Below, in pieces: positions 42,949 through 64,000 of a stretch of DNA of 64,000 nucleotides (position 1 is its first letter; each line of letters begins with the position of its first letter). The notes beneath the pieces were generated by a model. That model had not been told where the DNA came from and ran no database searches. It was given only the letters and a program-made list of their open reading frames with translations. The position numbers and the translations under genes were made by a program. Location of the stretch: the NCBI GenBank assembly GCA_027490975.1, contig JAIXXA010000145.1:5723-69722 (forward strand), given 5' to 3'. The DNA comes from Rhodospirillaceae bacterium (GTDB taxonomy: Bacteria; Pseudomonadota; Alphaproteobacteria; CACIAM-22H2).

Positions 42949-42960
42949 GCGCAGGCCCTT

Positions 42961-44078: not shown

Positions 44079-44999
44079 TTAAGGACGGGCCAGCGAGGCT
44101 TCGATGCCGTTTTTAACCACCACATTCAGCACGTCCGGGGCCACGCCGGCAAGCCAGCGCAGATATTCGAGCGCTTGCAAGGCGCGCCCTGCCCCCACCC
44201 GCACGCCGTGATTCAGGCTTATGCTCGTAAGGCCGGCCAAAATGCGCAGATCGAGGATCTGGGCGGGGGTCTGGGCTAGCACCGTGTTGGCGGGCAGGCC
44301 CGCAAGCGGCAGGAGATCGGTCGCAATGTCGAGATTGACGATATTCTGGGCATCACCCCAGCCCGGATGGGACGGCCCCCAGATCCCGGCAAATCGAGCA
44401 AAGTCGCCGGCCGCGCTGCCGCGGCTTTTGTCGGGCGCTTGGCCGGCCCCGCCGCGATCGGCGACAGCGCGGATGATCGCACCGGGGGCGAATTCGCAGC
44501 GCCCGCCGGCCTTCCAGATGCGCAAACCCAGATCCGGGTCGGCGTGGAATTTGACGTATCCCTCGTCGAATCCGCCGCCGACAGTCGCAAGGGTCGTGCG
44601 ACGCAGCATGAAAAAATACGGGTAGTAGCGCCCATAGACGCTGCCGACGGCCGTAATCCCGCGCACCCCGAGCGGAAATCCGACCGCAAGCAGCGGCACT
44701 TCGGGCTCGCGCGTCTGCAGATGCGCAAGCGCGAGGCGCAAAGCGCCGGGATCGAGCCGGTTGTCGTCGGCCAGCAGCACCAGAATGTCGCCACTCGCAG
44801 CCGCAAAACCGAGATTGCAGGCGGCGATCGATCCGCGCGGGTTTTCCTCTTTGACCCATCGCAGGTGCGGGCCTGCGATTTCGAACGGCGAGACGACGAC
44901 GATTTCATGGTCGAGGCCGGCTGCCTCGGCGCGGGCCGCGTCGATCGCCCCGGCCACGAGCGTGGGAAAGATCGAGGGCAGCACGAAGCTGATTTTCAT
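44079..44999 (-). CDS. Glycosyltransferase family 2-like protein
   Basis: GT-A N-terminal fold with DD acidic motif; ATGA overlap with epimerase. Confidence 0.5.
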   Translation of the reverse strand: MKISFVLPSIFPTLVAGAIDAARAEAAGLDHEIVVVSPFEIAGPHLRWVKEENPRGSIAACNLGFAAASGDILVLLADDNRLDPGALRLALAHLQTREPEVPLLAVGFPLGVRGITAVGSVYGRYYPYFFMLRRTTLATVGGGFDEGYVKFHADPDLGLRIWKAGGRCEFAPGAIIRAVADRGGAGQAPDKSRGSAAGDFARFAGIWGPSHPGWGDAQNIVNLDIATDLLPLAGLPANTVLAQTPAQILDLRILAGLTSISLNHGVRVGAGRALQALEYLRWLAGVAPDVLNVVVKNGIEASLARP

Positions 45000-45982
45000 G
45001 GCACAGCGGCCGGCGCAAGATCGGGCCGATTCTGTCGCCACCAGGCAAGCGTGCGCTTGATGCCGTCGTCGAGAGCGACCTGCGGCGTCCAGCCAAACTC
45101 CGTGGCGAAACGGCTGCAATCGAGCGCTGTACGCGTGTCGATCGTCGGCCGGCTCGGGTCGAGTTCGATCGCCAGCGTGCGGCCCGAAAGCGCAATGATG
45201 CGTTCGGCCAACGCCAGCGTCGAGATCGTTTTTCCGCTCCCCAAATTGTAGAGCCCGAACGCTGCGCGCTGGCGCTCGACCGCAAGCTTGACGGCCGCGC
45301 AAAGATCGTCGGCATGCAAGAGATCGCGTTCGGCAAGCCCCGTGCCCCAATGCACGAGTTTGCCGTTGGTCGCGGTCAGCGCCTTGGTGACCGTGGCGCC
45401 GAAAACGTGGCTGCGCGCGAGGTCGAACTTGTCGTAAGGACCGTAAACATTGGTGTGGCGAAAGGCCGTGAAGCGCGTGCGCCCGAGGCTCGCGTACCAG
45501 GCGCACATGCGTTCGAAATAGACCTTTGTCGTCGCCGCCCCCACATAGGCCGGGTGGAGCGGCAGCGCGGGATCGTAGTCGTCCTCGCGCTGCGGCTCGG
45601 GCGTATCGGCATACATGACGGCGCACGAGAACCAGACCACATGCGCCACTCCCGCCTTGTGGGCCGTCGCGAAGATCCGTGCGGTCATCACTTGGTTGTC
45701 GACCACAAGCGACAGCGGATCGTGCAGATTGGCGGCCGACCCTGCGGTTGCAGCCGCCGCGTGGATCGCGAGCGCAGCCCCCTTGAGGGCCGCGTCCACG
45801 CCTGCCTGCGTGGTGAGATCGGCCGACCGCCACGCAATGCGCGGATGCTCGAAGGCCGGACGGCGATGGCAGATCGCCGTCACGCGGTAGGCGGGATCGG
45901 CCGCAAAAAACTCGGCGATATTGCGACCGACGAACCCGGTGGCGCCGAGGACGACGACGTCGGTCACGGCCAGGTCAGCCAA
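44996..45982 (-). CDS. NAD-dependent sugar epimerase/dehydratase (extended SDR)
   Basis: GATGFVG Rossmann motif, YxxxK. Confidence 0.8.
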   Translation of the reverse strand: MADLAVTDVVVLGATGFVGRNIAEFFAADPAYRVTAICHRRPAFEHPRIAWRSADLTTQAGVDAALKGAALAIHAAAATAGSAANLHDPLSLVVDNQVMTARIFATAHKAGVAHVVWFSCAVMYADTPEPQREDDYDPALPLHPAYVGAATTKVYFERMCAWYASLGRTRFTAFRHTNVYGPYDKFDLARSHVFGATVTKALTATNGKLVHWGTGLAERDLLHADDLCAAVKLAVERQRAAFGLYNLGSGKTISTLALAERIIALSGRTLAIELDPSRPTIDTRTALDCSRFATEFGWTPQVALDDGIKRTLAWWRQNRPDLAPAAVP

Positions 45983-46033
45983 GACAGAACGCGCCGCCGC
46001 ACCGCCTTGCGCATGGCAAGCGACGCGGCCGAC

Positions 46034-46255
46034 TTACGCGAGCAGATTGATTTCGGTGCCGCGGCTCTGCAGGGCCGTGGTCGAAACGTCCGACGTTTCG
46101 CCGGCAGCTGCCTGGATGCCGCGCTGCACTCGCGTTGCGACAACCTGGGCAACCTGCTGGGTGGTGTCGTTGTAAAGCTCGCCGCGATTAAGGGCCGCTT
46201 TTTGGACAGGCAGAAAACTGGCCGTAAGGCCGGACGCACCAATTGCTGACGCCAT
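46034..46255 (-). CDS. Small (73 aa) hypothetical protein with strong RBS
   Basis: GGAGAA 7 nt upstream of ATG; Ala/Thr/Gln-rich. Confidence 0.45.
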   Translation of the reverse strand: MASAIGASGLTASFLPVQKAALNRGELYNDTTQQVAQVVATRVQRGIQAAAGETSDVSTTALQSRGTEINLLA

Positions 46256-46337
46256 CGGGATTCTCCATGGACAAAAATTCGTTAACCTTTTTTAACCCAA
46301 CGGCGCCCAATCTGTCGAGGTCCTTGAAGGGGTCCGC

Positions 46338-46892
46338 CTATTTGCGGGTCTTTTTGGCCTTTTTCGCCTTTTTGGCGCGATCGATGCCCTCGGCGATCAG
46401 CTTTTCGGCGCCTTTGGCATCGACCCACTTTACGATCGTGACCCACTTGCCCTTCTCGAGATCCTTGTAATGCTTGAAGAAATGCGCGATCTGCTCGATC
46501 AGGATTTCGGGCAGATCGGTGTAGTTTTTGACGCCCGTGTAGAACGGATGCAGTTTGTCGACCGGGACCGCGACGATTTTCTCGTCGGGCCCGCCCTCGT
46601 CTTCCATCAGGAGCGCGCCGATCGGGCGCGAGCGGATCACAGCACCGGGAACGACCGGCACGTGGCCGACGACGATCACGTCGACCGGGTCGCCGTCGCC
46701 CGACAGCGTGTGCGGGATGAAGCCGTAATTGGCGGGATAGCGCATGGCCGTGTGCAGGAAGCGGTCGACGAACAAGGCGCCCGAGGCCTTGTCGATTTCG
46801 TATTTGACCGGTTCGCCGCCGAGCGGAATTTCGATGAGCACGTTGACGTCGTGCGGCGGCTTGGCACCGATCGAGATTTTTTGGATGTCCAT
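46338..46892 (-). CDS. ppa: Inorganic pyrophosphatase
   Basis: Family I PPase signature (DGDPVDV, EIP motif); start at MDIQKIS, frame-derived coordinate. Confidence 0.9.
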
Positions 46893-46899
46893 TGCGATT

Positions 46900-47193
46900 C
46901 TAACCCTTGCGTTTGGCGCCGTTGAGGCGGTCGGACGTGATGTGGTAGCCGAGTTTGGGATCCATTTCGCCGGCCGCGTACATGACCGAGGCGAGTTTGT
47001 GGATGCGCGCCATGTTCGAGCGGTAGATCGAAACAAGCGCGCCCGGCGAGGTGCTGGAGATGCCTTCAAGATCGGCCAAAGCGCGCTGATCCACCGTGAA
47101 CTGCACGATTTTGGCGCCGTCGCGCGCCTCGATGACGACGCCGCCCTTCATATTGTCGAATTGGGCGCGTGCCCCTCCGAAATCCAACGGCAT
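46900..47193 (-). CDS. DUF1488-family small protein
   Basis: 97 aa from internal Met ([13 protein letters not shown]…); resembles DUF1488 N-terminus. Confidence 0.55.
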
Positions 47194-47320
47194 TTTCGTC
47201 TCCGAATCCTGCAGCTCGAAGCTTTCGCAACGCCGCCGACCGACGGCGCGCGTTTTGTAGCGAGTTTCCGGGCGCGGCGCTAGCCGCGCCAAAGCTCGAC
47301 GACAAACCGGCCGAGGATCG

Positions 47321-47366
47321 AAAAACAGCCGCCCCAAAGCCGCGCACGCGTGGGGCGGCGCTTTTG
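47321..47366. terminator. GC-rich hairpin (GCCGCCCCA…TGGGGCGGC) with flanking T-runs
   Basis: Inverted repeat with 9-bp stem; T-run on plus side (GCTTTTG) and on minus side (TGTTTTTCG); no upstream gene on either strand. Confidence 0.3.
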
Positions 47367-47908
47367 ACCCTCACGAAGCGCCAAGGCTGGCAGTTGCCGA
47401 CCGACGCTGCATGCCAAGCGATCGCCAGAATTCTGTCGTGCACGGTTTCGGCACGGGGCGTGTCGCGGCAGTGCGTAACTTCCCGCCACCAGACGAACAG
47501 ATCCGCGAGGTACAAGCAAAGGCCCGCGTCGATTCCCGGTGCGCCGCTGGGCCCGGAAACTTCCGTATCGCATTGCGCGGGGCTGCGTCGGCGGAGACCC
47601 GTGCCGCTTTCGGCATGCGCCGATCGAAAGCATTTTGGTCGCAATCAAAAGACATTGCAGCACGCCGAATCATCGACGAAAAAACCGAATTAAATCAGCG
47701 CTTTATCTGCATGTATACGAAGGTCTTCTTGTAATATGGTTAATTGGCATCATATCAGGATGAGTTGTCGTACAACTCGCTCCTCACTACGATTGTAGCG
47801 AAAGACATCGTCGCAAACGAAACAACGAGATCACGCAGAACTGGCCCACCCATCGCCAAAAAGTCCGCAAAAATTGCGGCGGGCAACTTGCCTCCTGGAG
47901 CATCCCGA

Positions 47909-49933
47909 ATGTCGTTTTTTGCCTCGCTCAACAGCAATTTTCGTATCGGAACGCGTATCGGCGCCGGGTCCGCTCTCATTCTGGCCCTTCTCGCCGCCGT
48001 GGCTCTATTCGGCTGGAAAGGCTTGACCGACACCGAAGCGCTCTTCCTGCGCTACAATACCGTGAGCGGCAACACGATCCGCATGGGCGACGTCGATGCC
48101 GACTTCCAAAGGTTGCGGCGCTTTGTTCTGCGCTACGCCGACGGCGGCGCCAGCGCCGACCGCGCCGGCATCGAAAAGACCGCAGCATCGATCCGCGAGG
48201 CTCTCGCCGCATCGATCGCTGCGATCATTTCCGAAGAACGCCGCGCGATCGCGCGCGAAGCACAGGCGGCCTTCGAAGAATACATGCGCAATCTCGACCG
48301 GCTCTACCAGCTGCGCGACGCACGCGAAGCTGCCGTCGAGCGCGGCATGAACGAGCTCGGCCTGCAGGCGCGTACGGCGCTCACAAATGCGATCGACGGC
48401 GCCATTGCGGCCGGCGAATACCGCGCAGCTTCCTATACCGGAAAAGCGCAAGAGCAGCTCGGCCTGTTCCGCCTCAACGCGCTGCGTTACCTGATCAAGC
48501 CGGACCCGGCCTTGATCCAGACGGCCGAGCGCCAGATGAACGCGCTGAACCTGCATCTGGCGCAGGCGCGCGACGCGGCAACGGGCGAGCGCCGCGCGCT
48601 GGTCGAGCAGGCCGCCGCAATCGTCCCGCGCTATCTCGCTTCTTTCCGCCAAGCGACGGAGGCGGTGCGCGCGATGGACGAACTCGTAAACACGACCAAT
48701 GCGCAGGTTGCCGCGCGCGTGGGCGAGCGCATCGACACGCTGAAGGAGCGCCAGAAAACCGCGACGACGCAGATCGCTGCCGACGCAGCCGATGCGGTGC
48801 ATGCGAGCGTTACGACGATGCTGACTCTGTCGGTCGCGGCCCTCGTTCTGGGGCTGCTGGCCGCGTATGCGATCGCCAAAGGCATCACGGGGCCAGTCGG
48901 CGCCATGACGGCGGCGATGGAGCGTCTCGCGGGCGGCGATCTCGGCACCGAAGTTCCGGCCAAGGCCAACAAAGACGAACTCGGCACGATGGCGCAGGCG
49001 GTGCAGGTGTTCAAAGACAACGCCATCCGCGTCAAAGCGCTCGAAGACGCGCAAGCGGCCCTCGAAGCCAAAGCTGCGGCCGAGAAAAAAGCCGCCATGG
49101 CCGCCCTCGCCGACCGTTTCGAGGCCGAAGTGGGCACCGTCGTCGCCGGCGTGTCGCATGCGGCCGAACAGCTGCAGGCATCGGCCGGTGCGATGTCGGC
49201 CATCGCCGAAGAAACAAGCCGGCAGGCGACCGCCGTTGCCGCCGCATCCGAGCAGGCTTCCAGCAACGTGCAGACGGTCGCCTCGGCGGCCGAGGAGCTG
49301 TCGAGCTCGATCACGGAGATTTCGCGCCAGGTCGCTGAATCGAGCCGCATCACGGCCCAAGCGGTCGAAGATGTCCGCCACACCGGCGAAACGGTCGAAA
49401 CGCTGGCCTTGGCGGCGCAGAAGATCGGCGACGTCGTGAAGCTCATCTCCAGCATCGCCTCCCAGACAAACCTGCTCGCGCTCAACGCCACGATCGAAGC
49501 GGCGCGCGCGGGCGACGCCGGCAAGGGTTTTGCCGTCGTCGCGTCGGAGGTCAAAAACCTCGCGAGCCAGACGGCAAAGGCGACCGACGAAATCGGCGGC
49601 CAGATCGCCGAGATCCAGACGGCGACGGGTGCCTCGGTCGAAGCGATGCGCGCGATCGGCCAGACGATCGCCAAGATGAACGAGATCGCCACCGGCATTG
49701 CCTCGGCCGTCGAAGAACAAGGGGCGGCGACGCAGGAGATTGCGCGCAACGTTCAGCAGGCGGCCGCCGGCACAAACGACGTGTCGTCGAACATCGCGGG
49801 CGTGACGCAGGCCGCCAGCGAAACCGGTGCGTCCGCAAGCCAGGTCAAAGACGCGGCTTCGACGCTGGGCACGCAGTCCAGCGATCTGCGCCGTTCGGTT
49901 GCGGGCTTCCTCACGGAGGTGCGCGCGGCCTGA
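47909..49933 (+). CDS. Methyl-accepting chemotaxis protein (periplasmic helical sensor, HAMP, MCP signalling domain)
   Basis: TM1, about 290-aa periplasmic region, TM2, HAMP, signalling hairpin ([15 protein letters not shown]); start at internal ATG MSFFASL. Confidence 0.85.
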
Positions 49934-50244
49934 GGCGCCGAGCCGTCGCCGTCGCGATCGCGTATTCGTCGGCGCTTTATACGGAACATCCACGTCCGCA
50001 AAGAGACCAGTTCTTTACAGAGAGTTAACGCGGATACCTTTGATCGAATTCGAACATATTCTTCTTGCAATTCGATCCAAGAGCGGAAATAACTTAGCTC
50101 TCTCTGACTGCATTAGAATATCATACACACCCAGAAAGTAGCCGCAATGGTTGGCCAGTCGGTACCCGCCAGGTCGCCGAGCAGTCGCCAGAAAATGGCG
50201 ACGCCTATCCGGCGTGCGCTGGGAACCGCGCGGTACTGCGTTGT

Positions 50245-52380
<2,136 letters not shown>

Positions 52381-52507
52381 CCGCGCGCCGTTCGGCACCT
52401 GCCGCAGCATGCGAATGTATGCTGCACGCGCCGGAAAAGTCTGGCGCGGCGCGCGTCGGGGAGGCTAAGAATGTCTCTTTGCCGAGACATCTCCGAGAGA
52501 GCGGCAC

Positions 52508-53026
52508 GTGGAGTTCGACGACGTCATCGACCATCCGGATCTGCTGGCGCTTTACCGCCATTGGCGGGCGCTTGCCCGCGGCGCCACACCGCCGCGTGCG
52601 GCCTTCGACCCCTTCGCGATGCCACGCTTGATGCCGAATCTGTTTCTGATGGATGTTCTGCCGGACGGCGGCTTCCGGTACCGGCTGGTCGGAACCGCCA
52701 TCGACGCGCATCTGGGCGTTTCGTTCACCGGGCGACGGCTCGACGAAGTGCGCGCGGGCAAAACGCGCGACGACCTTGCCCATCTCTTCGCAACCGTGGC
52801 GAACGAACGCCGCCCCGGCTACTACGCCTCGCGCCTTGCGAGCGAGACGAACGCCCATGCCAGCTACCGACGGCTCGTGCTGCCGCTTGCGGCAGCCGAC
52901 GGCTCGGTGGCCGTGCTGCTCGGCGGCTTCTGCGTCGTATGGGCGAACGAGAGTTTGGATCCGATGCGCATCACGTCGTTCGCCAACGCGCCCGAAATCG
53001 GCGGCACGCTGATGTTTCGGCGGTAG
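52508..53026 (+). CDS. PAS_5-type small protein, paralog 3
   Basis: GTG start; same family as 12341/13026/60733. Confidence 0.55.
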   Translation: MEFDDVIDHPDLLALYRHWRALARGATPPRAAFDPFAMPRLMPNLFLMDVLPDGGFRYRLVGTAIDAHLGVSFTGRRLDEVRAGKTRDDLAHLFATVANERRPGYYASRLASETNAHASYRRLVLPLAAADGSVAVLLGGFCVVWANESLDPMRITSFANAPEIGGTLMFRR

Positions 53027-53091
53027 GCGTCGACGCGTCCGCGCAGCCGAAAACAACAAAATTTTTTCGTATAAATCAGCCGCACATCGAC

Positions 53092-53547
53092 ATGCATCTT
53101 TGGCCGATGGGGGCATTGAATCTGCCGATCTCGAACCACATATACAGCGATGTTCGAGAAAACACCGTCGAGGGTCCCTCTTCCCTCTGGCATACGCGAA
53201 ACGGGAATTGGGTGCCGATGTTCGAAGCTTTTTTTGGCGCGCTCGACGCGTCGCTGCCTTGGCTCATGGCGATCGCCGCAGCGGCGATACTGACCGGAAA
53301 CCATTTTGCGCGCGCCGTTCTCGTCGATTACGGCCTGTCGCTGCGCGCGCGCCAATATGCCGGCCTGGGATGCGCGACGGCCGCTTTGGCGATGTGGTCG
53401 GGCATCACGTCGTGCCATGCGACGACGGGTTTGATCGCCGTTCTGATCGGCTTGAGCGTCAATGCGATCCGCCTCAATCGCTTTGCACATGCGACCGCTT
53501 CGAGCGTGTTTGCGGCCACCCTCGTGCCTGTCGTGGCCGTGTCGTGA
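53092..53547 (+). CDS. Hypothetical membrane protein (3-4 TM)
   Basis: Hydrophobic segments; TATAAAT-like -10 in AT-rich upstream DNA; competing out-of-frame ORF 53100..54317. Confidence 0.35.
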   Translation: MHLWPMGALNLPISNHIYSDVRENTVEGPSSLWHTRNGNWVPMFEAFFGALDASLPWLMAIAAAAILTGNHFARAVLVDYGLSLRARQYAGLGCATAALAMWSGITSCHATTGLIAVLIGLSVNAIRLNRFAHATASSVFAATLVPVVAVS

Positions 53548-54317
53548 ACGGCGCGCGTCTCTTCTTCCCGGCCGCCTGGCCGCTCGATTCCTTCGCCGTG
53601 CTCGATGCGATGCGCCCGCTTTACCAGGCCGGCGCCAAAAAAATTACGCGCTATCCGCTCAAGCATCTTCGCTACTGGTTCATGCGCCACCTGCTCGAGC
53701 AGAAGGCGGCGAAACTGGGGCGTCCGCTCTCGGTCCTCGAAGTGGGCGTCGATCGCGGGCAGATGCTCGCTTTCATGGGCGGCCCGGCGCGCAAAGCCGC
53801 GCTGATCGAACGGTGGGACGCGATCGACGTCGCGCCCGCGCACGAGATGCTGGCGCGCGTCGGTTACGACGACGTTCGCACCATGAACGTCGATGCCGGC
53901 GCCGATCCGCATCTCGAGCGGCGCTACGACGTCATGATCTTTCTGCATCTGCTGGAACATCTGCATGCGCCCGAGCAATGCTTGGCGCGTTTCCAGCAGT
54001 ATCTCCCGCGCGGCGGCACGATGATCGGCGGCAGCCCGACAATGCCGCGCTTGGTTGCCGATGCGGGCTACGAGCAGCGCCTTGCCCGTCGGGCGCGGCC
54101 TTTCGGGCACGTGAGCGTCCTGTCGCCCGAACGCATCGACAGCTTCGCCGAACAGGCCGGCCTGCGCGTGGCTTTCATGTCGGGAGCGTTCTTCATGCGG
54201 CGCCAGGGCAGCCGGCTCGAAAATTCGCGGCTGTGGCTGCGCGCGAACCTGGCTTTTGGCGGACTTTTTCCGTCGCTCGGCAGCGAAATCTATTTTGCGC
54301 TCGAGCGCGCCGAATAG
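53544..54317 (+). CDS. SAM-dependent methyltransferase-like protein
   Basis: LEVGVDRGQ motif-I-like; GTGA overlap with preceding ORF; start uncertain. Confidence 0.5.
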   Translation: MNGARLFFPAAWPLDSFAVLDAMRPLYQAGAKKITRYPLKHLRYWFMRHLLEQKAAKLGRPLSVLEVGVDRGQMLAFMGGPARKAALIERWDAIDVAPAHEMLARVGYDDVRTMNVDAGADPHLERRYDVMIFLHLLEHLHAPEQCLARFQQYLPRGGTMIGGSPTMPRLVADAGYEQRLARRARPFGHVSVLSPERIDSFAEQAGLRVAFMSGAFFMRRQGSRLENSRLWLRANLAFGGLFPSLGSEIYFALERAE

Positions 54318-54330
54318 CGCCGGAACCGGC

Positions 54331-54376
54331 TGCCAAGCCCGCCGGGGCTCGAACCCGGAACCTCGACCTAAAAGAG
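54331..54376 (-). repeat. Diverged copy of tRNA 3'-end segment (T-arm + acceptor, no CCA)
   Basis: agcccgccggggctcgaacccggaacc… aligns with copies at 60451 and 63985. Confidence 0.5.
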
Positions 54377-54394
54377 CAATTGCCGCGGCAACGG

Positions 54395-55300
54395 TCAGGC
54401 CTCGCTGGCGGTGCGATCGAGAAGCTGGTTGAGCCGCTCATTCGCCTCGGTCGTGAGGTTGATGTGCGAGCGTCGCTTGTCGCGCGGATCCTCGTGGCGC
54501 ACGATCAGCCCTGCTTCGACCATGTCCTGCACCCGGCGCAGCGCCGTCGTCTGGCTGATGTTCGCTGACATGCACAAGCCCGACACCGACGTCGCCTTGC
54601 CGCTTCTTTCGAGAAGTGCGAGCTCCAGAAACATGAACCAAGCAGGATCCCCGAACATCTCCTGCGGCAGCAGCTCCGATCGCTGGTTGCGGAAACGGAG
54701 CAGCGATCTGAGGGTATCTATCCGACGTCGCTCGCGGCTCTCCGGCGTCTCCGCGCCGCGGCCCGACTTGGCGAGGCCCGACTTGGCGAGGTCCGACTTG
54801 GCGAGGTCCGGCGCTGCGCTGCCCGGCGTCGGGGCAAGCAGAAGCGCGCGCAGTGCCGAAACCGCCGTATCGTTGGCGTTCGACGATTCGACGGCGCGTC
54901 GGTAGTTCGAAACGGCGGCGGCGACCACGGCAAGCGCCTCGTCGGGCTCGAACGGCTTTTGCAGATACCTTGCGACGCGCAGATCGATGGCCTCGATGGC
55001 GCTCGATATCTCCGGAAACCCCGTCATCAGGATCAGCGCGCACGCAGCGCCGCGATCGCCGCACCGCCGAATCTTCTGCAGAAAACCGATGCCGTCCTGC
55101 AGCGGCATTCGGATGTCGGAAACGACGACGCCGATGCGGTCGTCCTTGAGAAAACGTTCGAGTCCCTGCGAGGCGCTGATTGCGCCGACGGCGTCGAAAC
55201 CGGCAGCGCACAGCGCAAAGACGAGTTCTTCGACGGCCGACTCCTCGTCGTCGACAACGAGGATCTTTACGGCGTCGTCGGATTGCTGGCTTTTCTGCAT
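54395..55300 (-). CDS. Response regulator: REC domain, repeat linker, MarR-like winged-helix
   Basis: REC residues (VVDDEE, VVVSDIRMP, ILMTG, LQKPF); C-terminal wHTH (…CMSANISQTTALRRVQDMVEAGLIVRH…). Confidence 0.75.
   Translation of the reverse strand: MQKSQQSDDAVKILVVDDEESAVEELVFALCAAGFDAVGAISASQGLERFLKDDRIGVVVSDIRMPLQDGIGFLQKIRRCGDRGAACALILMTGFPEISSAIEAIDLRVARYLQKPFEPDEALAVVAAAVSNYRRAVESSNANDTAVSALRALLLAPTPGSAAPDLAKSDLAKSGLAKSGRGAETPESRERRRIDTLRSLLRFRNQRSELLPQEMFGDPAWFMFLELALLERSGKATSVSGLCMSANISQTTALRRVQDMVEAGLIVRHEDPRDKRRSHINLTTEANERLNQLLDRTASEA
54762..54810. repeat. 3 x 15-nt tandem repeat (cccgacttggcgagg) inside the REC-wHTH gene, encoding LAKSD/LAKSG repeats
   Basis: Seen directly in the DNA. 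Confidence 0.7.
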
Positions 55301-55324
55301 GCTTCGAAACTCGTCGAGAGGATG

Positions 55325-57475
55325 CTATGAGGCAAGCGTTGCCGCACCGACGGCGGTGCGTATCGGCAGCGACACCACGAAACAGGCGCCGCGATCGCCA
55401 TTCGAAACTTCGATCGTTCCTTTCAGGCTTTCGACCGTCGCACGGCAGATGGCCAATCCAAGACCGGTGCCGCCGGTGCCGGACCGTGTGGTGAAAAACG
55501 GCTGAAAGACGTTCGCGATGATGTCGGCAGGAATGCCCCCGCCGCTGTCTTCGACGAAAATCCGCACGATCTCGGGCGCCAGCGGATCCGCTTCCATGCG
55601 GATTCCGACGATGTCCGGCGCGCGCGCGCGGGAACCGGGAATCGCCTTTCCTTCCGAGCGGCTTCTCAGAATGGCATCGTAGGCGTTTGCCAGCAGATTC
55701 ACGAAGACCTGTTCGAGTTCGATGCGGCTGCATTCCAGTTCGCACGCGACGTCCGTCTCGACGATCAGATGGATACCGTCGATCCGAAACTGCTCTTCGT
55801 ACATGCCGATGGCCGCGTGTATCGCATCCGACAGCTTGGCAAGCTCGACGACGTTTCTGTCCTGCCGAATGAGCGAACGAAAACGCGTGAGGATGCTTCC
55901 CGTGCGATGGATGTTTTCGACCGCTTTGCCGGCGCGCGCGAGGAGGTCTTCCTTGGGCGCGCCCCGCTCGATAAGCGTGGTCAGGTTCGCAAGTCCGAGC
56001 CGGACCACGTTCAGCGGCTGGACCATCTCGTGGTTCAGCGTGGCCGCCAGCCGCCCGAGCGACGCCAGCTTTGCGGACTGGATGAACATCATCTCCTTGG
56101 CGCGCAATTCGGTGTTGTCGATGCCGACCCCGATGAATCGGACCGTCGAATCCACTGCTGTCTTGCTCTGCGTCCAGCTCCACATGATGTCGCGCCGCAG
56201 GCTCGAGGAATCGTTCGGGGTGAACGAAGACTCGAAACGCACCGGATACTCTTCGGCGGATCGAATTCGGCTGAAATGCCCGACCTGGTCGGCTGCGAGG
56301 CCGCCGGCCGCGACGACCGAGTCGAAGGGCCGCCCGACCAGATCGCCGCGATCCGCGACGCCGAACATCACGGCAAACGCCGAATTGCAGGCCGCAATCT
56401 GGCCGGCGGCGTCGGTCTGCACGAGGGCCGCACCGCAGCCGTCCATGATCCCGATGAGGTCCGCCGATTGCTGTTTCTGCAAGGCGGCAAGCGCATCGCC
56501 CACCCGGGCCCTGTCCTGCGCGCGCAAGAACTTCTCGAACAGAACGGCGAGGCCGATGACGAAGGCGGCCGAAAGGAAACCGATCGTCAGATAGAGACGG
56601 CGCTGCTCGTAGAAGTCGGCAAACACGGCATCGGTGTTCTTGCCGACGAGAACCGTCAGCGAAATGTCGTCCAAGCGTCGGAAGGCGAAGATCCGTTCCA
56701 CCGTGTCCAGGCGACTGACGGCTCGAAACGTCCCTTCCGACGCAACCTTGACCAACGCCTCGACTTCGAACCCGGCGATCGAGCCGCCGATGAACTGCCG
56801 CCCAGGACCGCTCGGCGCGCGCGCGCGGATGATGCCATCCAGCCCGAAAAGATTGACGAGCGTGTTGTTCGGCTCGCCCAGAACTTCGAGGAAGTTCGAA
56901 AAAAGCTGGGGGTCGACCGAAACGACGACCACGCCCAGAAACGGGCCGCCCGCGTAGCGCACCGGTCGGCTGATATTCAGCGACAAGCGCCCGGACGCGC
57001 GCCCGACAAGCGGTTTGCTGATGAACATGCGATCGGCGTCCGTGTCGCGATGCACGCTGAAATGCTCGCGATCCGACAGGTCGACGCCAATGCTCGAGGC
57101 GTTTTCGGTGGTGGCCAGCAGCTTGCCGTCCGCGCCGATCACGGCGATCTGGAACAAGGGCTCGCGCAGCACGCCCCGCCGCGCCGACCATGTCGAGATG
57201 TCGGCCGGCGGGCCGTCGTCGAGCACTTCCTCGCGAAGGAGCAGCAGCACCTGGTCGAAGCGCTGCAGCAGATTCCGGGTGAAAACCTCGAACAGCTGCG
57301 CCTCGTATTTCGCCTGAAGAACGGCGCGGCTTTCGAATTCGCTTTCGGCGCGCTTGGTCAACCCGATCGCGCCAAGCAGGATCGCGGCAGACAGCGACAC
57401 GGCGATCGCCAGCAACGTGAGCAGACGCCCCGATCCATTGGCCAAGGGTGCGAAGGATTTGTGCATTGCGTTCAT
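55325..57475 (-). CDS. Membrane sensor histidine kinase with periplasmic Cache-like domain and PAS
   Basis: TM-periplasmic-TM topology; H-box NHEMVQPL; N, G1, G2 boxes intact. Confidence 0.8.
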   Translation of the reverse strand: MNAMHKSFAPLANGSGRLLTLLAIAVSLSAAILLGAIGLTKRAESEFESRAVLQAKYEAQLFEVFTRNLLQRFDQVLLLLREEVLDDGPPADISTWSARRGVLREPLFQIAVIGADGKLLATTENASSIGVDLSDREHFSVHRDTDADRMFISKPLVGRASGRLSLNISRPVRYAGGPFLGVVVVSVDPQLFSNFLEVLGEPNNTLVNLFGLDGIIRARAPSGPGRQFIGGSIAGFEVEALVKVASEGTFRAVSRLDTVERIFAFRRLDDISLTVLVGKNTDAVFADFYEQRRLYLTIGFLSAAFVIGLAVLFEKFLRAQDRARVGDALAALQKQQSADLIGIMDGCGAALVQTDAAGQIAACNSAFAVMFGVADRGDLVGRPFDSVVAAGGLAADQVGHFSRIRSAEEYPVRFESSFTPNDSSSLRRDIMWSWTQSKTAVDSTVRFIGVGIDNTELRAKEMMFIQSAKLASLGRLAATLNHEMVQPLNVVRLGLANLTTLIERGAPKEDLLARAGKAVENIHRTGSILTRFRSLIRQDRNVVELAKLSDAIHAAIGMYEEQFRIDGIHLIVETDVACELECSRIELEQVFVNLLANAYDAILRSRSEGKAIPGSRARAPDIVGIRMEADPLAPEIVRIFVEDSGGGIPADIIANVFQPFFTTRSGTGGTGLGLAICRATVESLKGTIEVSNGDRGACFVVSLPIRTAVGAATLAS

Positions 57476-57701
57476 GGGGCCCCGGCCATCTCGATGCTGT
57501 TGTCTCTATCCCATGACAATAAAATCAACATCTTCTACCGGGACAGAACGACCCATGTCGATCCCCGTCAAAGTTCAGATTGGAATCCAAACTGAACCAG
57601 ACTGTTCTGTCGGCCGGTTCAAAGTGCGACTAGCGTGCTTAACAAGCGATTAACGGCGTGTCGGCGCGATTTGGCGCAACAAGCGGGATGGGCGTAGTCA
57701 G

Positions 57702-58640
57702 ATGTCGAAACAGATGCTGAAACCAGACACCGACGGCGCAAGCGGCCCAGGCGCAAACGGTGAAGCGCAATTGAAGCTTCGGATGGGCATCCGGCGCCTG
57801 CGCCCTGCGCTTTCGTCGGCCCGCGCCGGCGCACAGGCCAACGCCCGGGCGGCGCCCGCCCCTGTGTCCGACGAGGCGAATGCTGCGCTGATTGCCGCCA
57901 AGAATGCGGCCGAAGCCGCCAACCGAACCAAAGCAGCCCTGCTTGCCAACATGAACCACGAGCTTCGCGCGCCGCTGAACGCGATTCTCGGCTTCTCCGA
58001 AATTCTCGCCGACAACACCGTCGTCGCGCACGGACCGCTTCAGGTCGCCCGGCAAACCGAATTCGCCGGCCATCTGAACAACGCCGGCCACCAGCTTCTC
58101 GACATCGTCGAAAGCATCCTCGACCTTGCGACCATCGAAGACGAAGCGCGCGACATTCGTCCTTCGCCGACTTGCCTGGGCGGCCTCGTCGCGGATGTGG
58201 TGGCGCGGCTGCAGCCGCTCGCGTCGCAATTCGGCGTGCAGATTCGCACCGACCTCGATGCCGATCTGCCGAACTGCGCCATCGACGCCGCCCGCATCCG
58301 CCAGGCGCTTCGCAGCGTCGTCGACAACGCAATCAAGTTCTCGAACAGAAACGGCACGGTGACTGTCGCGGTCTCGCGCTCGAACGCGGCCAATGCCGTC
58401 GTCACCGTTTCGGATACCGGCGTCGGGATCGGCCCGGCGGACATCGCCGACGTCTTCCGCGAGTTTCACCATGGCGATTCGTCGTTCACGCGACGGTACG
58501 ACGGCGCCGGGCTCGGCTTGACCTATGCGAAGAAGTTCGTCGAACAGCACAAGGGCCGCATCACGCTGGCGAGCGAACGGAACGTCGGCACCACCGTGAC
58601 GATCGAATTGCCTTTCGTCGCCGCGACGCAAGAAGGATGA
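57702..58640 (+). CDS. Soluble histidine kinase (HisKA + HATPase)
   Basis: H-box NHELRAPLNAI; N, G1, G2 boxes intact; low-complexity N-terminus. Confidence 0.8.
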   Translation: MSKQMLKPDTDGASGPGANGEAQLKLRMGIRRLRPALSSARAGAQANARAAPAPVSDEANAALIAAKNAAEAANRTKAALLANMNHELRAPLNAILGFSEILADNTVVAHGPLQVARQTEFAGHLNNAGHQLLDIVESILDLATIEDEARDIRPSPTCLGGLVADVVARLQPLASQFGVQIRTDLDADLPNCAIDAARIRQALRSVVDNAIKFSNRNGTVTVAVSRSNAANAVVTVSDTGVGIGPADIADVFREFHHGDSSFTRRYDGAGLGLTYAKKFVEQHKGRITLASERNVGTTVTIELPFVAATQEG

Positions 58641-59071
58641 GCGAAATGGCGACGCCAAGCTGCAGAGTGCTGATCATCGACGACGACGCAAGCTGCGCCG
58701 AAGAATTGTGCCTGCTGCTCTCGGCCGCGGGCTTCCCCACCGAACACGAACTCAGCGCGGCCGACGGCATACGCCATTTTCTGCGCGATCCGAGCGTGCG
58801 GGTCGTCGTTTCGGACATTCGCATGCCGGATTGCGACGGGGTGCGGCTGCTCGACCAGATCCGCAGTTCGGGCGTGCGCGGCCTGGACGCGACCGTGATA
58901 CTGGTGACCGGACAGCCGGATCTCCACACCACGATCGACGCGCTCAATCTTGGCGCGTCTGCGATGCTGATGAAGCCGCTCGATCCGGTCGAGATCGTCA
59001 GCGCGGTTTCCAAGGCCGTCGACATCCAGATGGAGCTGGTGGACTCACTTCAGCCGAAGAAGGTCTCGTGA
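58637..59071 (+). CDS. Single-domain response regulator (CheY-like)
   Basis: ATGA overlap with HK; LIIDDD, VVVSDIRMP, ILVTG, LMKPL. Confidence 0.8.
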   Translation: MSEMATPSCRVLIIDDDASCAEELCLLLSAAGFPTEHELSAADGIRHFLRDPSVRVVVSDIRMPDCDGVRLLDQIRSSGVRGLDATVILVTGQPDLHTTIDALNLGASAMLMKPLDPVEIVSAVSKAVDIQMELVDSLQPKKVS

Positions 59072-59877
59072 TCTTGTCCGCGTCCGGGCCGAGACATGCC
59101 GCGCATTGCGATGCGCCATCCCAACTCGACGGCGGCGGGGACGCGCATGCGGACGTTTCGGCTTCCAAAGCGCGGCTTCTTTCGCGCTTGATCGACGAAT
59201 CGCAGGCGCCTCTGAACGCAATCATCCGGCTCTCGGCGGTCCTTCTGGACAAGGCCGACGCGCCGTCCGCAATCGGCAGTCTTTGCCGGACGGACGATCT
59301 GATCGCGCACATAAACACCGCCGGCAACCAGCTTCTCGACCTTCTCGAGAACGCCGCCGACATTGCGCAGATCGAAGACGGTCGATTGCCGCCCGCATTC
59401 AGGTCGCTGTGCGTAAACGACCTGATCTTGGATGTCGTCGGACGACTGGCGCCGATGTCCGAGCAGTTCGGGATTCCGGTTCAGATGTCGCTCGATCCCG
59501 ATCTGCCCTGCTGCATGATCGACGCGGTGCGCATGCGATGCGCGCTGCGAAGCGTGATCCGCAATGCGATCGAATTCTCGAAGCCCAATGGCGTCGTCGA
59601 CATCTGGACAACCCGGTCTGCCGAACGCGGAATTGTAGTTACCGTCGCCGATCGAGGCATCGGCATTCCCGATAAAGATCTCGAAGAAATCTTTCTGCCG
59701 CTTCATCGCCGTGTTCCTGCCGCCGCGGAATGTCCTCTCGGGCCGGGGAACGGGCTCGTTCTGGCGAAGAGGTACATCGAATACCATCGGGGAAACATCT
59801 GGTTGACGAGCAAGCCGGGGATCGGAACGACGGTCGAAATCGATCTGCCGCATGTCGCGCCGAAGCGCTGGGAGTGA
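59068..59877 (+). CDS. Histidine-kinase-like paralog with H-box His replaced by Asp (pseudo-HK)
   Basis: LIDESQAPLNAI versus MNHELRAPLNAI in the paralog 1.4 kb upstream; ATP-lid N and G1 boxes retained; GTGA overlap. Confidence 0.7.
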   Translation: MILSASGPRHAAHCDAPSQLDGGGDAHADVSASKARLLSRLIDESQAPLNAIIRLSAVLLDKADAPSAIGSLCRTDDLIAHINTAGNQLLDLLENAADIAQIEDGRLPPAFRSLCVNDLILDVVGRLAPMSEQFGIPVQMSLDPDLPCCMIDAVRMRCALRSVIRNAIEFSKPNGVVDIWTTRSAERGIVVTVADRGIGIPDKDLEEIFLPLHRRVPAAAECPLGPGNGLVLAKRYIEYHRGNIWLTSKPGIGTTVEIDLPHVAPKRWE

Positions 59878-59883
59878 CGTGCC

Positions 59884-60414
59884 GTGACCGCCGATTCCTG
59901 CAAGGTGCTTGTCGTCGACGACGATGCGAACTGCGCGGATGAGTTATGTCTTTTGCTTGCCGCAGTCGGCATCCAGACCATGAGCGCTCATTGCGCGGCA
60001 GACGGCATCATCAAATTTCTCGACGATTCGACAATCCGCGTCGTCGTGTCCGACGTTCGGATGCCCGATTGCGACGGCCTCGAACTTCTTGAGATGGTCC
60101 GCTTGTGCCGCGAACGCGGCGGCGGTGCCAGCTTCATTCTCGTCACCGGGCATCCCGAAAAGCTCACGAGCCGCGAGGCGTTGGAGCGCGGCGTGTCGGA
60201 TGTGCTGCTGAAACCGCTCGATCCGGTCCGTGTCGTCGACGCGGTCGCGCGCGCGGTCGCGCTGCAGACGGGGGCGACGCGCCGGACCGAAGACCGGGCT
60301 CGGACTGCGGAGATGGCGCGCGAGTTCCGCAATGCAGGAGCGGTCGACGATGTTCTGCTCGACGACGTCCTGGCCGCATTGAAAAAAATTCTGCGCGACG
60401 ACAAGCGCCACTGA
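59884..60414 (+). CDS. Response regulator (REC with about 50-aa C-terminal extension)
   Basis: GTG start; VLVVDDD, VVVSDVRMP, ILVTG, LLKPL. Confidence 0.75.
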   Translation: MTADSCKVLVVDDDANCADELCLLLAAVGIQTMSAHCAADGIIKFLDDSTIRVVVSDVRMPDCDGLELLEMVRLCRERGGGASFILVTGHPEKLTSREALERGVSDVLLKPLDPVRVVDAVARAVALQTGATRRTEDRARTAEMAREFRNAGAVDDVLLDDVLAALKKILRDDKRH

Positions 60415-60450
60415 GACGGGACAGCGCGCACCGGATATCCGAGCGAAGGT

Positions 60451-60495
60451 TGGTGAGCCCGCCGGGACTCGAACCCGGAATCCCTGCATCAAAAG
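60451..60495 (-). repeat. Copy of tRNA 3'-end segment (anticodon-loop-like to CCA) without the tRNA 5' half
   Basis: Reverse complement reads …cttttgatgcagggattCCGGGTTCGAGTCCCGGCGGGCTCACCA; lies in an AT-rich spacer. Confidence 0.6.
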
Positions 60496-60732
60496 TTTTG
60501 GAATTATCTATATATTTCAATGACGTTCTCCGCCTGAAACGTCAGAATCGCGCAGATTCTGTTAAGATCGTGCCGTGCTTGACCGCTCAGGCCGCCTGTA
60601 GCTTCCGGCGAACAATGCCACGCACATTCGAGATGCAGCACAAGCCGATCTGCTCGAAGGACAGATTTGACGGTTCATCGTCAGACGGCGGTCGCGTACG
60701 TTATGTAAATGCGGAACGGCGAAAAAGCGGGC

Positions 60733-61275
60733 TCAATCGTCTATCAGCGCAATGAAGTCATTCAAGAAGGGCTTCGCCGAATTTTGTAACCCGCTCTTGG
60801 CGTCAGCCGCCGGATGGATTGATATGCGCCGCAGAAAACACAGTATCGAGGTCACCTGTTCTGCGCCAAACGGGAGCAATAGCCGCTCGAATTCGACTGG
60901 ATACCCTTGCACGGCCTCACGATGAAGCTTCGAGTAAACCGGCTTTCCCGACGAAACAACCACACTGTAGTCCCGAAGGATAGAGTCGCTCATTTCCGGC
61001 GGGAGTACGTCGTCGAGCAGACGCCCGGTAAAGTTCCCGCCGTCGGATGCTACGGCATGTTCGCCGTGGACGCGGAACCGATAGCCAATTCGGCCGTCGC
61101 TCCTTTCCACATCGTACAAGATAATGTTCGGCCACCAACGCGCGATGTCTTCGGGGTAAAAATCCGTCCGACTTGGCCACCGGCGATCTCGACGCAACGC
61201 GATCCACCATTCCACCAGGTTCTTGGCTTCTCCCGGCTGGATTGCCGCAGCAATGGTGGCAATGGGATACGGCAT
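60733..61275 (-). CDS. PAS_5-type small protein, paralog 4
   Basis: Same family architecture as 12341, 13026 and 52508. Confidence 0.55.
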   Translation of the reverse strand: MPYPIATIAAAIQPGEAKNLVEWWIALRRDRRWPSRTDFYPEDIARWWPNIILYDVERSDGRIGYRFRVHGEHAVASDGGNFTGRLLDDVLPPEMSDSILRDYSVVVSSGKPVYSKLHREAVQGYPVEFERLLLPFGAEQVTSILCFLRRISIHPAADAKSGLQNSAKPFLNDFIALIDD

Positions 61276-61426
61276 CGATCGGTCCTGCTGGGTTTGTGCC
61301 GAGGTCAGAAATCGCGCACTTCAATCGAATACGTGTTGGACGTCTTGCTTGCCATGGCGCTGCTTTCCCAAGAGTTAGAGTCTCCGGCAACGCCGTAGCA
61401 GGTTAGAAAGGCGGTTCCGGACCGCC

Positions 61427-63778
61427 TCATGCCGCTTTGCTGCGCTCCACGAAGTTGAGCCAACCCGAATCCTCGGAGATCTCTAGAAACGCGACATGCG
61501 CATAGCCGTCCGCAATCGAGCGCGCAACAAACCTAATTGGTGCAAAGTATCCGTCGATCGTCAAAGTGTCGCTTTGCCCTGGAGTCAACGCAGCAGCACC
61601 AGTCAATTTTGCACCCGCAGCCGAGAGATCCACAAGCGACACGCTCGCACCGCTGCCCAGCCGCCCACGAAGCGAGACCTCGTGCCGAGTAAACATGCGC
61701 CTGTCCGCCTCGGCAGTTGATGTACGCACCACGCGAACCAGCGCTGCCCGCAAGTCCTCGATGTTCTGAGTGACCCCCGTCACCGCCGTCCGGATATCGA
61801 CGGATTGACGGCCGACAGAATCCGCGTCGTTCGAGACCAGCGCAATCCGTTCTGCGATCTCCCGCGCCGCGTTGCTGGTTTCCCCAACATTGCGCGCGAT
61901 CTCTTGGGTCGCAGCTCCCTGCTCTTCAATCGCGGCTGCCACGGCGCCAGAAACGCCGTCGATTGAAGAAATTCGCGCCCCAATAGCGCCCACCGCTTCG
62001 ACTGCGGCGTTCGTAGCGGCGCGGATCTCCGCCACTTGCCGGTCGATGTCTTCGGTCGAGCGCGACGTCTGGTTTGCGAGATTCTTCACTTCCGACGCGA
62101 CAACCGCAAATCCCTTTCCAGCATCGCCGGCCCTCGCCGCCTCGATCGTCGCGTTCAATGCAAGAAGATTTGTCTGCCTCGCAATATCGCCGATCAACTT
62201 TGCGACTTCGGCAATCTTGCCGACGGCCAAAGACAATTCTTCGATCTTTTGCCGCGCATTTTCGCTTGTCGATACTGCAGCACGCGTTTCGCCGCTGGCA
62301 CGGCTGATCTGCGAGGATATTTCATGGATCGCACCGGACAATTGCCCTGCCGACGACGACACGCTCTGGACATTTGCCAACGCTTCTTCGGAGGCAGCGG
62401 CAACGGACTGGGAATTCTCCCCGACCGCGACAGCGCGCGACGCCATTTCCGCCACGACACGATCCACGTCGCGAGCGGACTGGGCGATTGTCTCAATCAC
62501 CGAATTCGTTTCGCGCTCGACGGTCTCAGCCATCTCACGCAGCGCCTGCCGCTTCAAGCGTTCCGCCTTTGTCGCGGCGACGGTCTGTTCTGCCTTCAGG
62601 CGCTCGTTCTCGACGGCACTGGCTTTGAAGACATTGACTGCGCCGGCCATAATGCCGATTTCATCTCGTCGATCCCCACCCGGAATGGACGCATTATGGT
62701 CGCCATCGGCGAGGTTCCGCATCGCCGCCGCCATCGCGAGGAGAGGTCGCACGATTTGCGCGCCAACCACCCAAAAAGAAAACATCGCAAGACCTAGGAC
62801 GACAGCGGCAACAGCCCCGGACTCGGCCAGTTTTGCCTGAGCAACTCCACTTTCGCGTTCAATTACGCGCCGGGCAAGCTGCGTCGCGGTCCCTTGCGCC
62901 GCAATGATCCGTTCAATTGCCGTCGTCGATTGCGCAAACCACTCCGGCGCCGTGATCGGATAAGGCTGCGAGGCGTTTGCAGCTGAAAAAACGCGTGTCC
63001 GCAACTGTCCGAATGTATCAAAATATGCGGCGCGCATATCCCCCAGTACGGACGCCAGTTCCTGGGGCACGCTGTCCCGCAGGACGTCGAGCCGGTTCCA
63101 AGCCAAGCTTATCTGGCCACGATTTTCGCCCTGCAAAAGAAACTGCAGGCCACTCAGCGGCTTGCCAGTCGCGATAACGCCAGCTACGCCGCCACGTTCA
63201 CGCCCGGCATATTCGCTCATCGAAGCAAGCAGTCCCTTGACCTCGAACAATGCGCGGATTTCGGGCGGGACTTCCGCATCGATCTGGCGCTCGAGACGCA
63301 TGCGAATGTCGCTGCTCGCAACGATGACCGAACTGATGGCTGGGAACCAATCCCGGATCAGTGCTTCATCGGCTGCGGTCGCTGCATCGACCCGTCCCCG
63401 AAGCGCGCCCAATTCTGCGATTCGCTGCGACAGGCGAACATGCTCCTGCCCCAAGGATGGGGGGAGCCCAGGCAAGGCTTTCATCATTTCGCCGGCTTGA
63501 GCGAACGCAGCATCCCCGGATGTCCGACGCTGCGCGACAGTCTGTCGCTGTGCAGATGTCGCGGCAACGGGATTGGAAATGATCGTGTTCGCCGTCCCGC
63601 GCTCGACGGCCCAATCGGCTGCGGCAGCCAGAAAACGATCCGCAATCTCGTTGATCGCCTGCGCTTGCGCGAGTGCATCGCGATATTCGACTGCACTCAT
63701 TGCACGCAGACCGACAAACATGAGGGCGACGATGCTGAGAATTGCAGTAAGGGAGAAAACCTTGATGCGGAGCGTCAT
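61427..63778 (-). CDS. Methyl-accepting chemotaxis protein with C-terminal PilZ domain (Tlp1-like)
   Basis: TM1, about 300-aa periplasmic domain, TM2, HAMP, MCP signalling domain, C-terminal RxxxR (RRMFTRHE) and DxSxxG (DLSAAGAKL) PilZ motifs. Confidence 0.8.
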
Positions 63779-63984
63779 TTCTACTCTCCGTTTGTCGGTT
63801 TAGAATACGCGACGATAGCGACAGACAATTTAAGAGAACGTTAAAGCGATACCGCCTTGTCAGCAGCTACGGCCCTCCCGATAGCTGAGACGCGCCAGTG
63901 TCCCGCGCCGGTAAATGCAACCGGGCGAGACCGGCGTCAGCGAGAAGAGGCGGGCAATGGATGTACAACAAATATACAAATCGT

Positions 63985-64000
63985 TGGTGAGCCCGCCGGG
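63985..64000 (-). tRNA. 3' end (acceptor-CCA) of a minus-strand tRNA gene truncated by the window edge
   Basis: Window ends in tggtgagcccgccggg, identical to the start of the 60451 copy; body would lie beyond 64000. Confidence 0.45.

Follow-up and report, generated by a model that had tools for sequence, protein, structure and literature searches.

What put short pieces of a tRNA gene around the signalling and chemotaxis genes at one end of an alphaproteobacterial contig? The locus lies at the right-hand end of a 64,000-nucleotide stretch of contig JAIXXA010000145.1 (Rhodospirillaceae bacterium), referred to here as the window. With a probability of about 85%, this end of the window is a tandem stack of two non-autonomous integrative islets, flanked by attachment (att) sites, at the 3′ end of a tRNA-Lys(UUU) gene. 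Islet A is a signalling module; islet B encodes a PAS_5 protein and a methyl-accepting chemotaxis protein (MCP). An original prediction, made from the letters of the window alone, had described the islets as nested. They are instead arranged in tandem, and the one that adjoins the tRNA is probably the youngest.

A repeat derived from tRNA-Lys(UUU)

Three copies of the repeat, beginning at 54331, 60451 and 63985, lie in one orientation where the original prediction had placed them, and the third is cut by the end of the window, leaving just 16 nt inside. Copies 1 and 2 comprise the anticodon loop, the 3′ strand of the anticodon stem, the variable loop, a perfect T arm (CCGGG-TTCGAGY-CCCGG) and the 3′ strand of the acceptor stem. 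On the minus strand, copy 1 reads CTTTTAG-GTCGA-GGTT-CCGGG-TTCGAGC-CCCGG-CGGGCTT-G-GCA from 54374 down to 54331, and copy 2 reads CTTTTGA-TGCAG-GGATT-CCGGG-TTCGAGT-CCCGG-CGGGCTC-A-CCA from 60495 down to 60451. Copy 1 is the more diverged, as had been claimed for a distal scar: it ends in G-GCA, without CCA, and differs at two more acceptor positions. The window contains a 23-nt core (CCCGCCGGGNCTCGAACCCGGAA) twice, where shuffles give an expectation of 0.01 occurrences. These three are the sole tRNA-Lys fragments in the 64 kb, and each stands at an insertion boundary. The predicted lack of a tRNA 5′ half before copies 1 and 2 was borne out by reading the sequence and by ARAGORN, which reports a single tRNA in the window, a tRNA-Ser at 12148, and none in the 3′ part.

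The identity of the repeat was established from intact genes. A 23-mer running from the T loop to the CCA (T arm and acceptor) was used to scan metagenomes and retrieved 96 stretches. Intact tRNA-Lys(UUU) genes, with the form GAGCCCGTAGCTCA...CTTTTAAT...CCGGGTTCGAGTCCCGGCGGGCTCACCA, make up nearly all of them; about 14 of the 96 are 3′ fragments that lack a 5′ half and become identical from the anticodon stem or loop. This identifies the repeat as the 3′ part of tRNA-Lys(UUU). tRNA-Lys(UUU) is often targeted by integrative elements in many lineages. Reading the fragment as tRNA-Gln, from an anticodon TTG in the loop TTTTGAT, was considered and dropped once the intact genes proved to be tRNA-Lys.

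Copies 2 and 3 can be compared beyond the window in Logan contig L001, which is from the same organism, encodes exactly the MCP of islet B and spans exactly from copy 3 to copy 2. There the two copies are identical over at least GGGTTCGAGTCCCGGCGGGCTCACCA (26 nt) plus the following AC, 10 nt more than the window shows, in agreement with the claim that they share an extended sequence. Exact-protein matches to the window's own proteins lie on short Logan contigs that end at the repeats. The exact junction at copy 3 was sought in metagenome contigs without a match.

Copy 1 varies between samples, reading CTTGGCA or CTCGGCA; these are small variants, and the copy is present in six of six same-species Logan contigs. 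In one same-species Logan contig (L083 28-75, compared with window 60414-60451), copy 2 and the stop codon of RR176 are about 10 nt further apart. Both point to strain-level microdiversity at the scars. An Rfam scan of 53-64 kb (E up to 10) gave one match over copy 1, at chance level and driven by the T arm, to the Y RNA-like family YrlA (54274-54386; 21 bits against a gathering score of 69, E 1.2); the match does not represent a true Y RNA.

Empty and differently filled sites in relatives

One of the 96 stretches, L109 (contig Ga0315907_10000151), is 86% identical to window 55845-60532. Further relatives were gathered as homologues of the REC-MarR protein of islet A, cluster members and their contigs. 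Four contigs are collinear with the window: L194, a 1.2 Mb contig of GCA_027532905.1 labelled Magnetospirillum sp., and L197, L198 and L200. Identity is 86% over 54395-60496, 79-82% over 47909-53025 and 88% over 42920-47289, the last block lying beyond the end of L200.

At the equivalent position an intact 76-nt tRNA-Lys gene is present in L114, L131, L187, L194, L201-L204 and L207, where it is preceded by gyrA and a coaD-like gene. In six of the contigs (L194, L201, L202, L203, L204 and L207) the site of islet B is empty: the identical 76-nt tRNA-Lys is followed directly by ACCTTCGTTCGG and then RR176. In the window, copy 2 is followed by ACCTTCGCTCGG and then RR176, and this flank matches that of the empty sites. 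The empty site of islet B is therefore nucleotide-precise, with the tRNA followed by RR176, as expected of a tRNA island of the integrase type. The original prediction had expected the tRNA to be followed by the methyltransferase gene at 53544, in a segment that is absent from these relatives. Its proposal of successive integrations at a tRNA just past 64000 on the minus strand, leaving islets without an integrase, is supported: relatives have an intact tRNA-Lys where copy 2 or 3 sits, six empty sites and other cargo. From the gene order in the empty-site relatives, the rest of the tRNA-Lys gene, then the coaD-like gene and gyrA, are predicted to follow past 64000.

The same site is filled differently in other strains. 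Ga0315907_10000151 and two similar contigs (L114 plus L196, L197 and L199) carry an 11.4 kb insert between the intact tRNA (in L114) and a fragment (L197 4811-4844), with genes for a GntR regulator, two BKACE proteins, Ldh_2, an NMT1-type ABC transporter, an SDR protein and an amidase. L200 carries at this site an HTH_66/DUF433 and PIN_10 pair (toxin-antitoxin), and L120, in which the region upstream of the tRNA is as in L114, has yet another proximal sequence. In VYKU01000040.1, the gyrA-tRNA region is 90% identical and a three-copy array like that of the window encloses two islets, one of 7.1 kb with genes for adenosine deaminase, an ABC transporter and a 2OG oxygenase, and one of 3.1 kb that encodes small unknown proteins.

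A different arrangement is seen in L187, where the order is gyrA, coaD-like gene, intact tRNA-Lys, a DUF3108 gene and a decayed tRNA-Lys. This second copy (4985-5065) is full-length, has an upstream leader (ttcgacgacgtttcggcgacGAGCGCGTGGCTCAATTGG...) and lies between the DUF3108 gene and RR177, ahead of the signalling module. In L095, too, DUF3108 directly follows tRNA-Lys. The second copy of L187 is a whole-gene duplication or replacement and not a 3′ att scar.

Islet B is foreign and probably recent

Islet B has a GC content of 0.586, lower than that of every 3.5 kb window in the remaining 53 kb (minimum there 0.603), and a GC content at third codon positions (GC3) of 0.64, compared with about 0.80 in neighbouring genes. 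Islet A, at 0.632 (the 5th percentile of background windows) and a GC3 of about 0.79, is near native. The spacers next to copies 2 and 3 are AT-richer, as predicted, with GC 0.52 at 60497-60732 and 0.53 at 63779-63984 against 0.65 (0.651) for the whole window.

The gene content proposed for both islets agrees with Pfam, apart from the PilZ tail of the islet B MCP, which is weakly supported: the Pfam match (E 0.0075) is below the curated cutoff, and the motifs RxxxR and DxSxxG were recognised by eye in the C-terminal 90 residues. Homologues of the sensor region of this MCP match PF08376 (NIT, nitrate/nitrite-sensing domain). Even the nearest homologues of the sensor domain do not exceed 61% identity, and a near-identical islet B cassette, sought elsewhere by means of this domain, was not found. 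In a genome scan for relatives of the MCP, the best among the matches listed, which share generic MCP motifs, was 41% identical, with no tRNA-Lys context. That islet B might be a copy of the PAS_5 and MCP genes of the neighbouring backbone was ruled out by identities of 33% (PAS_5) and 44%.

Copy 2 itself carries a trace of the incoming DNA. Its anticodon-stem and variable part reads TGCAG GGATT, where the host-type tRNA has TGTTG GGGTT; it begins AAAACTTTTGATGCAGGGATTCCGGG..., and identity to the host type starts only at TTCCGGG. In relatives, by contrast, the orthologue of copy 2 (ACACTTTTAATGTTGGGGTTCCGGG...) shows no difference from the host tRNA once the anticodon stem is reached. Copy 2 is thus not a simple duplicate of the tRNA end: its anticodon-arm part came from the incoming element, whose donor tRNA-Lys had a different anticodon stem. 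Because the left part of copy 2 is of the element type and its right part and flank are of the host type, the crossover for islet B is placed inside TTCCGGGTTCGAGTCCCGGCGGGCTCACCAAC (about 32 nt). Low GC and GC3, MCP homologues no closer than 61%, low identity to the paralogues and the element-derived part of copy 2 together show that islet B is foreign; it probably came recently, from a different lineage.

Islet A is an old member of the same family

The module of islet A is collinear and 86% identical in L194, L197, L198 and L200. In close relatives it is bounded by the tRNA (or a copy 2 fragment) on one side and, on the other, by a decayed fragment after REC-MarR. These equivalents of copy 1 read GGGTTCGAGTGCAGGCGGGCTCACCA in L194 and ...TCCAGG...CACTC in L197, and have one mismatch in 26 in L207; a decayed arm of the family described below lies beside the fragment. 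Their mutations differ between lineages, as expected from the independent decay of one ancestral scar. In L187, a relative at 71% amino-acid identity, the module is conserved and the distal fragment unrecognisable, and in the more distant L192 and L193 the module stands in other contexts. Islet A is not a recent arrival: with the module and a decayed distal fragment in all close relatives and a near-native composition, it belongs to the same element family but is old, and it is now a stable part of the chromosome of this group.

In L193 (1-2673; 64% amino-acid identity) the REC-MarR module adjoins TniB and TniQ, Tn7-like transposition proteins, and extra MCP genes, and may be transposon-associated.

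Conserved arms flank the fragments

A distal arm of about 95 nt lies on the element side of every fragment. It consists of tandem 10-mers resembling GCGATTCT, of the type RCGCGATTCY, and a block CATTGATTTNAAACNATAATTCTAAC; in islet B the 10-mers are ACAGAATCT and GCGCGATTCT, with a CATTGA...ATAATTC block. A profile built with nhmmer from five arms aligned with MAFFT (L197, L200, L121 and L123a/b; tRNA-like part excluded) gave a single match in the window, at 60498-60556 (E 9.1e-8). In L207 it matched between REC-MarR and the equivalent of copy 1 (E 2.3e-5). On the proximal side, a 16-nt box (GTACAGNNAYTGTCCG) is common to three islets and lies 18-19 nt after the CCA: GTACATCCATTGCCCG in the window, GTACAGGTACTGTCCG in L114 and GTACAGCTATTGTCCG in L123. 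By analogy with the architecture of known attP sites, the tandem 10-mers are predicted to be arm-type binding sites for a recombinase.

No recombinase is encoded in the islets

As predicted, no integrase remains. Pfam scans of all genes of islets A and B revealed none, and gene calls fill both islets with no room left. The same holds for four of the four fully visible islets (window islet B, the 11.4 kb islet and the two of VYKU01000040.1). Twenty further open reading frames of the window are ordinary chromosomal genes, none of them an integrase. The islets therefore lack the element-encoded recombinase of a typical tRNA island. A related autonomous element with an integrase, whether an integrative and conjugative element (ICE) or an integrative and mobilisable element (IME), was sought and not found, and scans of viral contigs were empty: neither the T-arm/acceptor 26-mer nor the arm motif had a match there, and no sign was seen of a phage with this att site.

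How the locus probably formed

Serial site-specific integration at tRNA-Lys, with att-flanked islets lacking a recombinase left behind, is the best-supported account of these features. An attP site bearing a tRNA-Lys-like segment would recombine site-specifically with the tRNA gene, the recombinase probably being a tyrosine integrase. The incoming DNA would rebuild the 3′ end of the tRNA, and the earlier 3′ end would be pushed outward together with the content already present. On this scheme islet A would have arrived first and islet B later, the youngest lying beside the tRNA, and position 63985 would be the 3′ end of a minus-strand tRNA-Lys gene that extends beyond the window.

Several observations weigh against this reading. 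The recombinase is hypothetical, no integrase or excisionase having been found anywhere that was searched. The intact tRNA gene would lie outside the window, and its presence is deduced from the synteny of relatives and the 26 nt of L001. Among the relatives compared, none with an empty site for islet A was found; VYKU01000040.1 has no islet A beside its array, with only about 1 kb beyond the array covered. The near-native composition of islet A does not set it apart, and copy 1 of the window has lost its neighbouring arm, with 18 nt in place of the 89 nt of relatives. Finally, other routes of rearrangement operate at the locus, since in L187 a full-length decayed tRNA-Lys replaces the 3′ fragment.

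That last case shows that whole-gene duplication or replacement does occur here, and would favour a simpler account in which the copies are tandem tRNA-Lys duplicates (pseudo-tRNAs) with ordinary chromosome between them and no mobile element. Copies 1 and 2, however, have neither a 5′ half nor a leader, and a conserved arm that is not part of the tRNA stands before the copies and is common to islets of unrelated cargo. With nucleotide-precise empty sites and a compositionally foreign islet B in addition, this account is very improbable. The copies are also short, structured, GC-rich and intergenic, as a dispersed tRNA-derived repeat would be, of the repetitive extragenic palindromic (REP), enterobacterial repetitive intergenic consensus (ERIC) or short interspersed element (SINE) kind, present three times by chance. 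Such repeats would have many dispersed copies away from insertion boundaries; here no further copies exist in the 64 kb, all three share one orientation and coincide exactly with insertion boundaries, and in relatives they lie beside tRNA-Lys. Chance repeats of this kind are a highly improbable explanation.

If the islets did integrate at the tRNA-Lys gene, they may be either relics or something more active. They could be cargo-only cassettes of an active family, with arms bound by a tRNA-Lys-specific integrase (and perhaps an excisionase) acting in trans from the genome or from a helper element. All four complete islets have well-preserved arms and no integrase, the arms are kept across unrelated cargo, the tandem 10-mers resemble arm-type sites, and among very close strains the site is found occupied, empty or refilled. 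Set against this, an integrase, an excisionase, a circular junction and a helper element were not found, the att sequence or arm is on no viral contig, the twenty other open reading frames of the window are ordinary chromosomal genes, and four complete islets are a small sample. Homologous recombination through conserved flanks could also spread integrase-less islets between strains, and loss of the integrase gene after integration is common among elements of this kind. Mobilisation in trans is a rather doubtful possibility. Equally tentative is the wider suggestion of a cassette family in a Rhodospirillales clade, made up of the tRNA-Lys 3′ segment, the distal arm of about 95 nt and the proximal box, whose members would be inserted, excised and exchanged in trans on an integron-like platform for signalling, transport and toxin-antitoxin genes. 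Were an integrase to act in trans, the locus would be a tRNA gene at which cassettes are exchanged and not a graveyard of decayed islands.

Comparison with known systems

The islets are CIME-like: they fit the definition of cis-mobilisable elements (CIMEs) in that attL and attR are kept, integration genes are lacking and accretion takes place at att sites (PMC5704250), whereas an origin from an ICE or IME, and mobilisation in cis after accretion with one, are putative. Islet B has a fragment and arm at both ends, retaining attL and attR; islet A has fragments at both ends, with its arm decayed or deleted. Integration and transfer genes are lacking from both by Pfam and gene calls. The closest parallels are CIMEs and accreted ICEs and IMEs, as in the ICESt1/ICESt3 family and the tRNA-Lys IME tandems of Streptococcus, which share the att flanks, the absence of integration and transfer genes, the tandem arrangement at one target end and, in the latter tandems, a tRNA-Lys 3′ end as target. 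In contrast to these, the host here is a Rhodospirillales-like alphaproteobacterium and the cargo serves signalling, chemotaxis or metabolism, and no related integrase-bearing ICE or IME was found for the islets of the window.

Tycheposon arrays in Prochlorococcus islands also arise from repeated integration at the same tRNA, which pushes older elements inward and leaves partial tRNA scars; their cargo is niche-adaptive and much of the island material is without mobility genes (10.1101/2020.12.28.424599). Unlike the islets, tycheposons have their own tyrosine or large serine recombinase and a replication module; their arms and tRNA target differ, and their host clade is unrelated. Classical tRNA islands and prophages with tyrosine integrases share the direct repeat from anticodon loop to CCA, here seen at both islet ends, the AT-richer arms with short repeats and the restored 3′ end, and islet B further has the deviating composition of such islands. 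The window differs in having no integrase at the tRNA-proximal end and in the very small size of its elements (3.5 kb and 6.1 kb). The cassettes of integrons offer an analogy only: they too are promoter-poor, cargo-only units bounded by recombination sites, gathered on one platform and moved by an outside recombinase. The window, however, has no intI, attI or attC, the recombination site consists of a tRNA 3′ segment and long arms, its units contain several genes, and in relatives the tRNA is preceded by the housekeeping gyrA and the coaD-like gene. Features of this kind are known; the arm architecture and the cargo-only family appear to be undescribed.

The locus is a clean natural example of a signalling and chemotaxis repertoire remodelled at a tRNA hot spot, where closely related strains have the site empty, occupied or carrying other cargo, with boundaries precise to the nucleotide. 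It also illustrates that tRNA 3′ fragments and arms can delimit islands that integrase-based finders miss.

Features of the window and the flank beyond copy 1

Table 1. Coordinates of the tRNA-Lys copies, the two islets and the adjoining region in the window
Feature	Position	Strand	Description
Copy 1	54331-54374	-	decayed tRNA-Lys 3′ fragment, T arm intact, acceptor end mutated; distal scar of islet A
Copy 2	60451-60495	-	3′ fragment of tRNA-Lys from the anticodon loop to CCA; former tRNA end preceding islet A, now attR of islet B
Copy 3	63985-64000	-	3′ end of a presumed intact tRNA-Lys(UUU) gene, attL of islet B; cut by window end
Islet B	60497-63984	-	PAS_5 and MCP genes between copies 2 and 3; 3.5 kb
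Islet B, tRNA-proximal arm	63779-63984	-	GC 0.53; 16-nt box at 63951-63966, 18 nt after CCA
Islet B, MCP	61427-63778	-	783 aa; HAMP and MCPsignal, NIT-like sensor, weak PilZ tail; GC3 0.64
Islet B, PAS_5 protein	60733-61275	-	180 aa; GC3 0.65
Islet B, distal arm	60496-60575	-	element side of attR; tandem 10-mers and block
Islet A	54378-60448		signalling module between copies 1 and 2; 6.1 kb
REC-MarR	54395-55300	-	islet A cargo
Cache histidine kinase	55325-57475	-	islet A cargo
HisKA/HATPase kinase	57702-58640	+	islet A cargo
RR141	58646-59071	+	islet A cargo
HATPase-only protein	59068-59877	+	islet A cargo
RR176	59884-60414	+	islet A cargo
Window-lineage insertion	53027-54330	+	151-aa open reading frame and Methyltransf_23 gene; outside both islets
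151-aa open reading frame	53092-53547	+	no Pfam match
Methyltransf_23 gene	53544-54317	+	identified with Pfam
Conserved backbone	42921-53026		collinear with L194 11022-20876, 82-88% identity
Backbone PAS_5	52508-53026	+	
Backbone PAS/Cache histidine kinase	50245-52380	+	
Backbone MCP	47744-49933	+	729 aa
Backbone pyrophosphatase	46338-47069	-	
Backbone glycosyltransferase	within 42921-53026		

The flank beyond copy 1 differs from that of the relatives in one segment, 53027-54330, which lies between the downstream flank of copy 1 and the stop codon of the PAS_5 gene, is present in all same-species Logan contigs and has no counterpart in L194, L197 or L187. The gap between the REC-MarR and PAS_5 genes is about 100-145 nt in relatives (L194 10877-11021, L187 10883-10984) versus 1369 nt in the window, and in relatives the counterpart of the backbone PAS_5 gene follows within 25 nt of the copy 1 equivalent. 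No flanking repeats or tRNA fragment of its own were seen at this segment. Judging by these comparisons, the methyltransferase gene and the 151-aa open reading frame are a later, lineage-specific insertion and not the ancestral flank.

Within the backbone, the MCP gene encodes 674 aa in L194 and is represented by two genes (419 and 233 aa) in several relatives (L196/L197 14081-16105, compared with L194 14082-16106), which suggests a frameshift or pseudogene, or an assembly error. Far from the islets, the one intact tRNA gene of the window, tRNA-Ser UGA (12148-12237), has no tRNA-Ser fragments downstream of it that could be found; the genes after it encode a tandem pair of PAS_5 paralogues (12341-12904 and 13026-13604) that are 43% identical.

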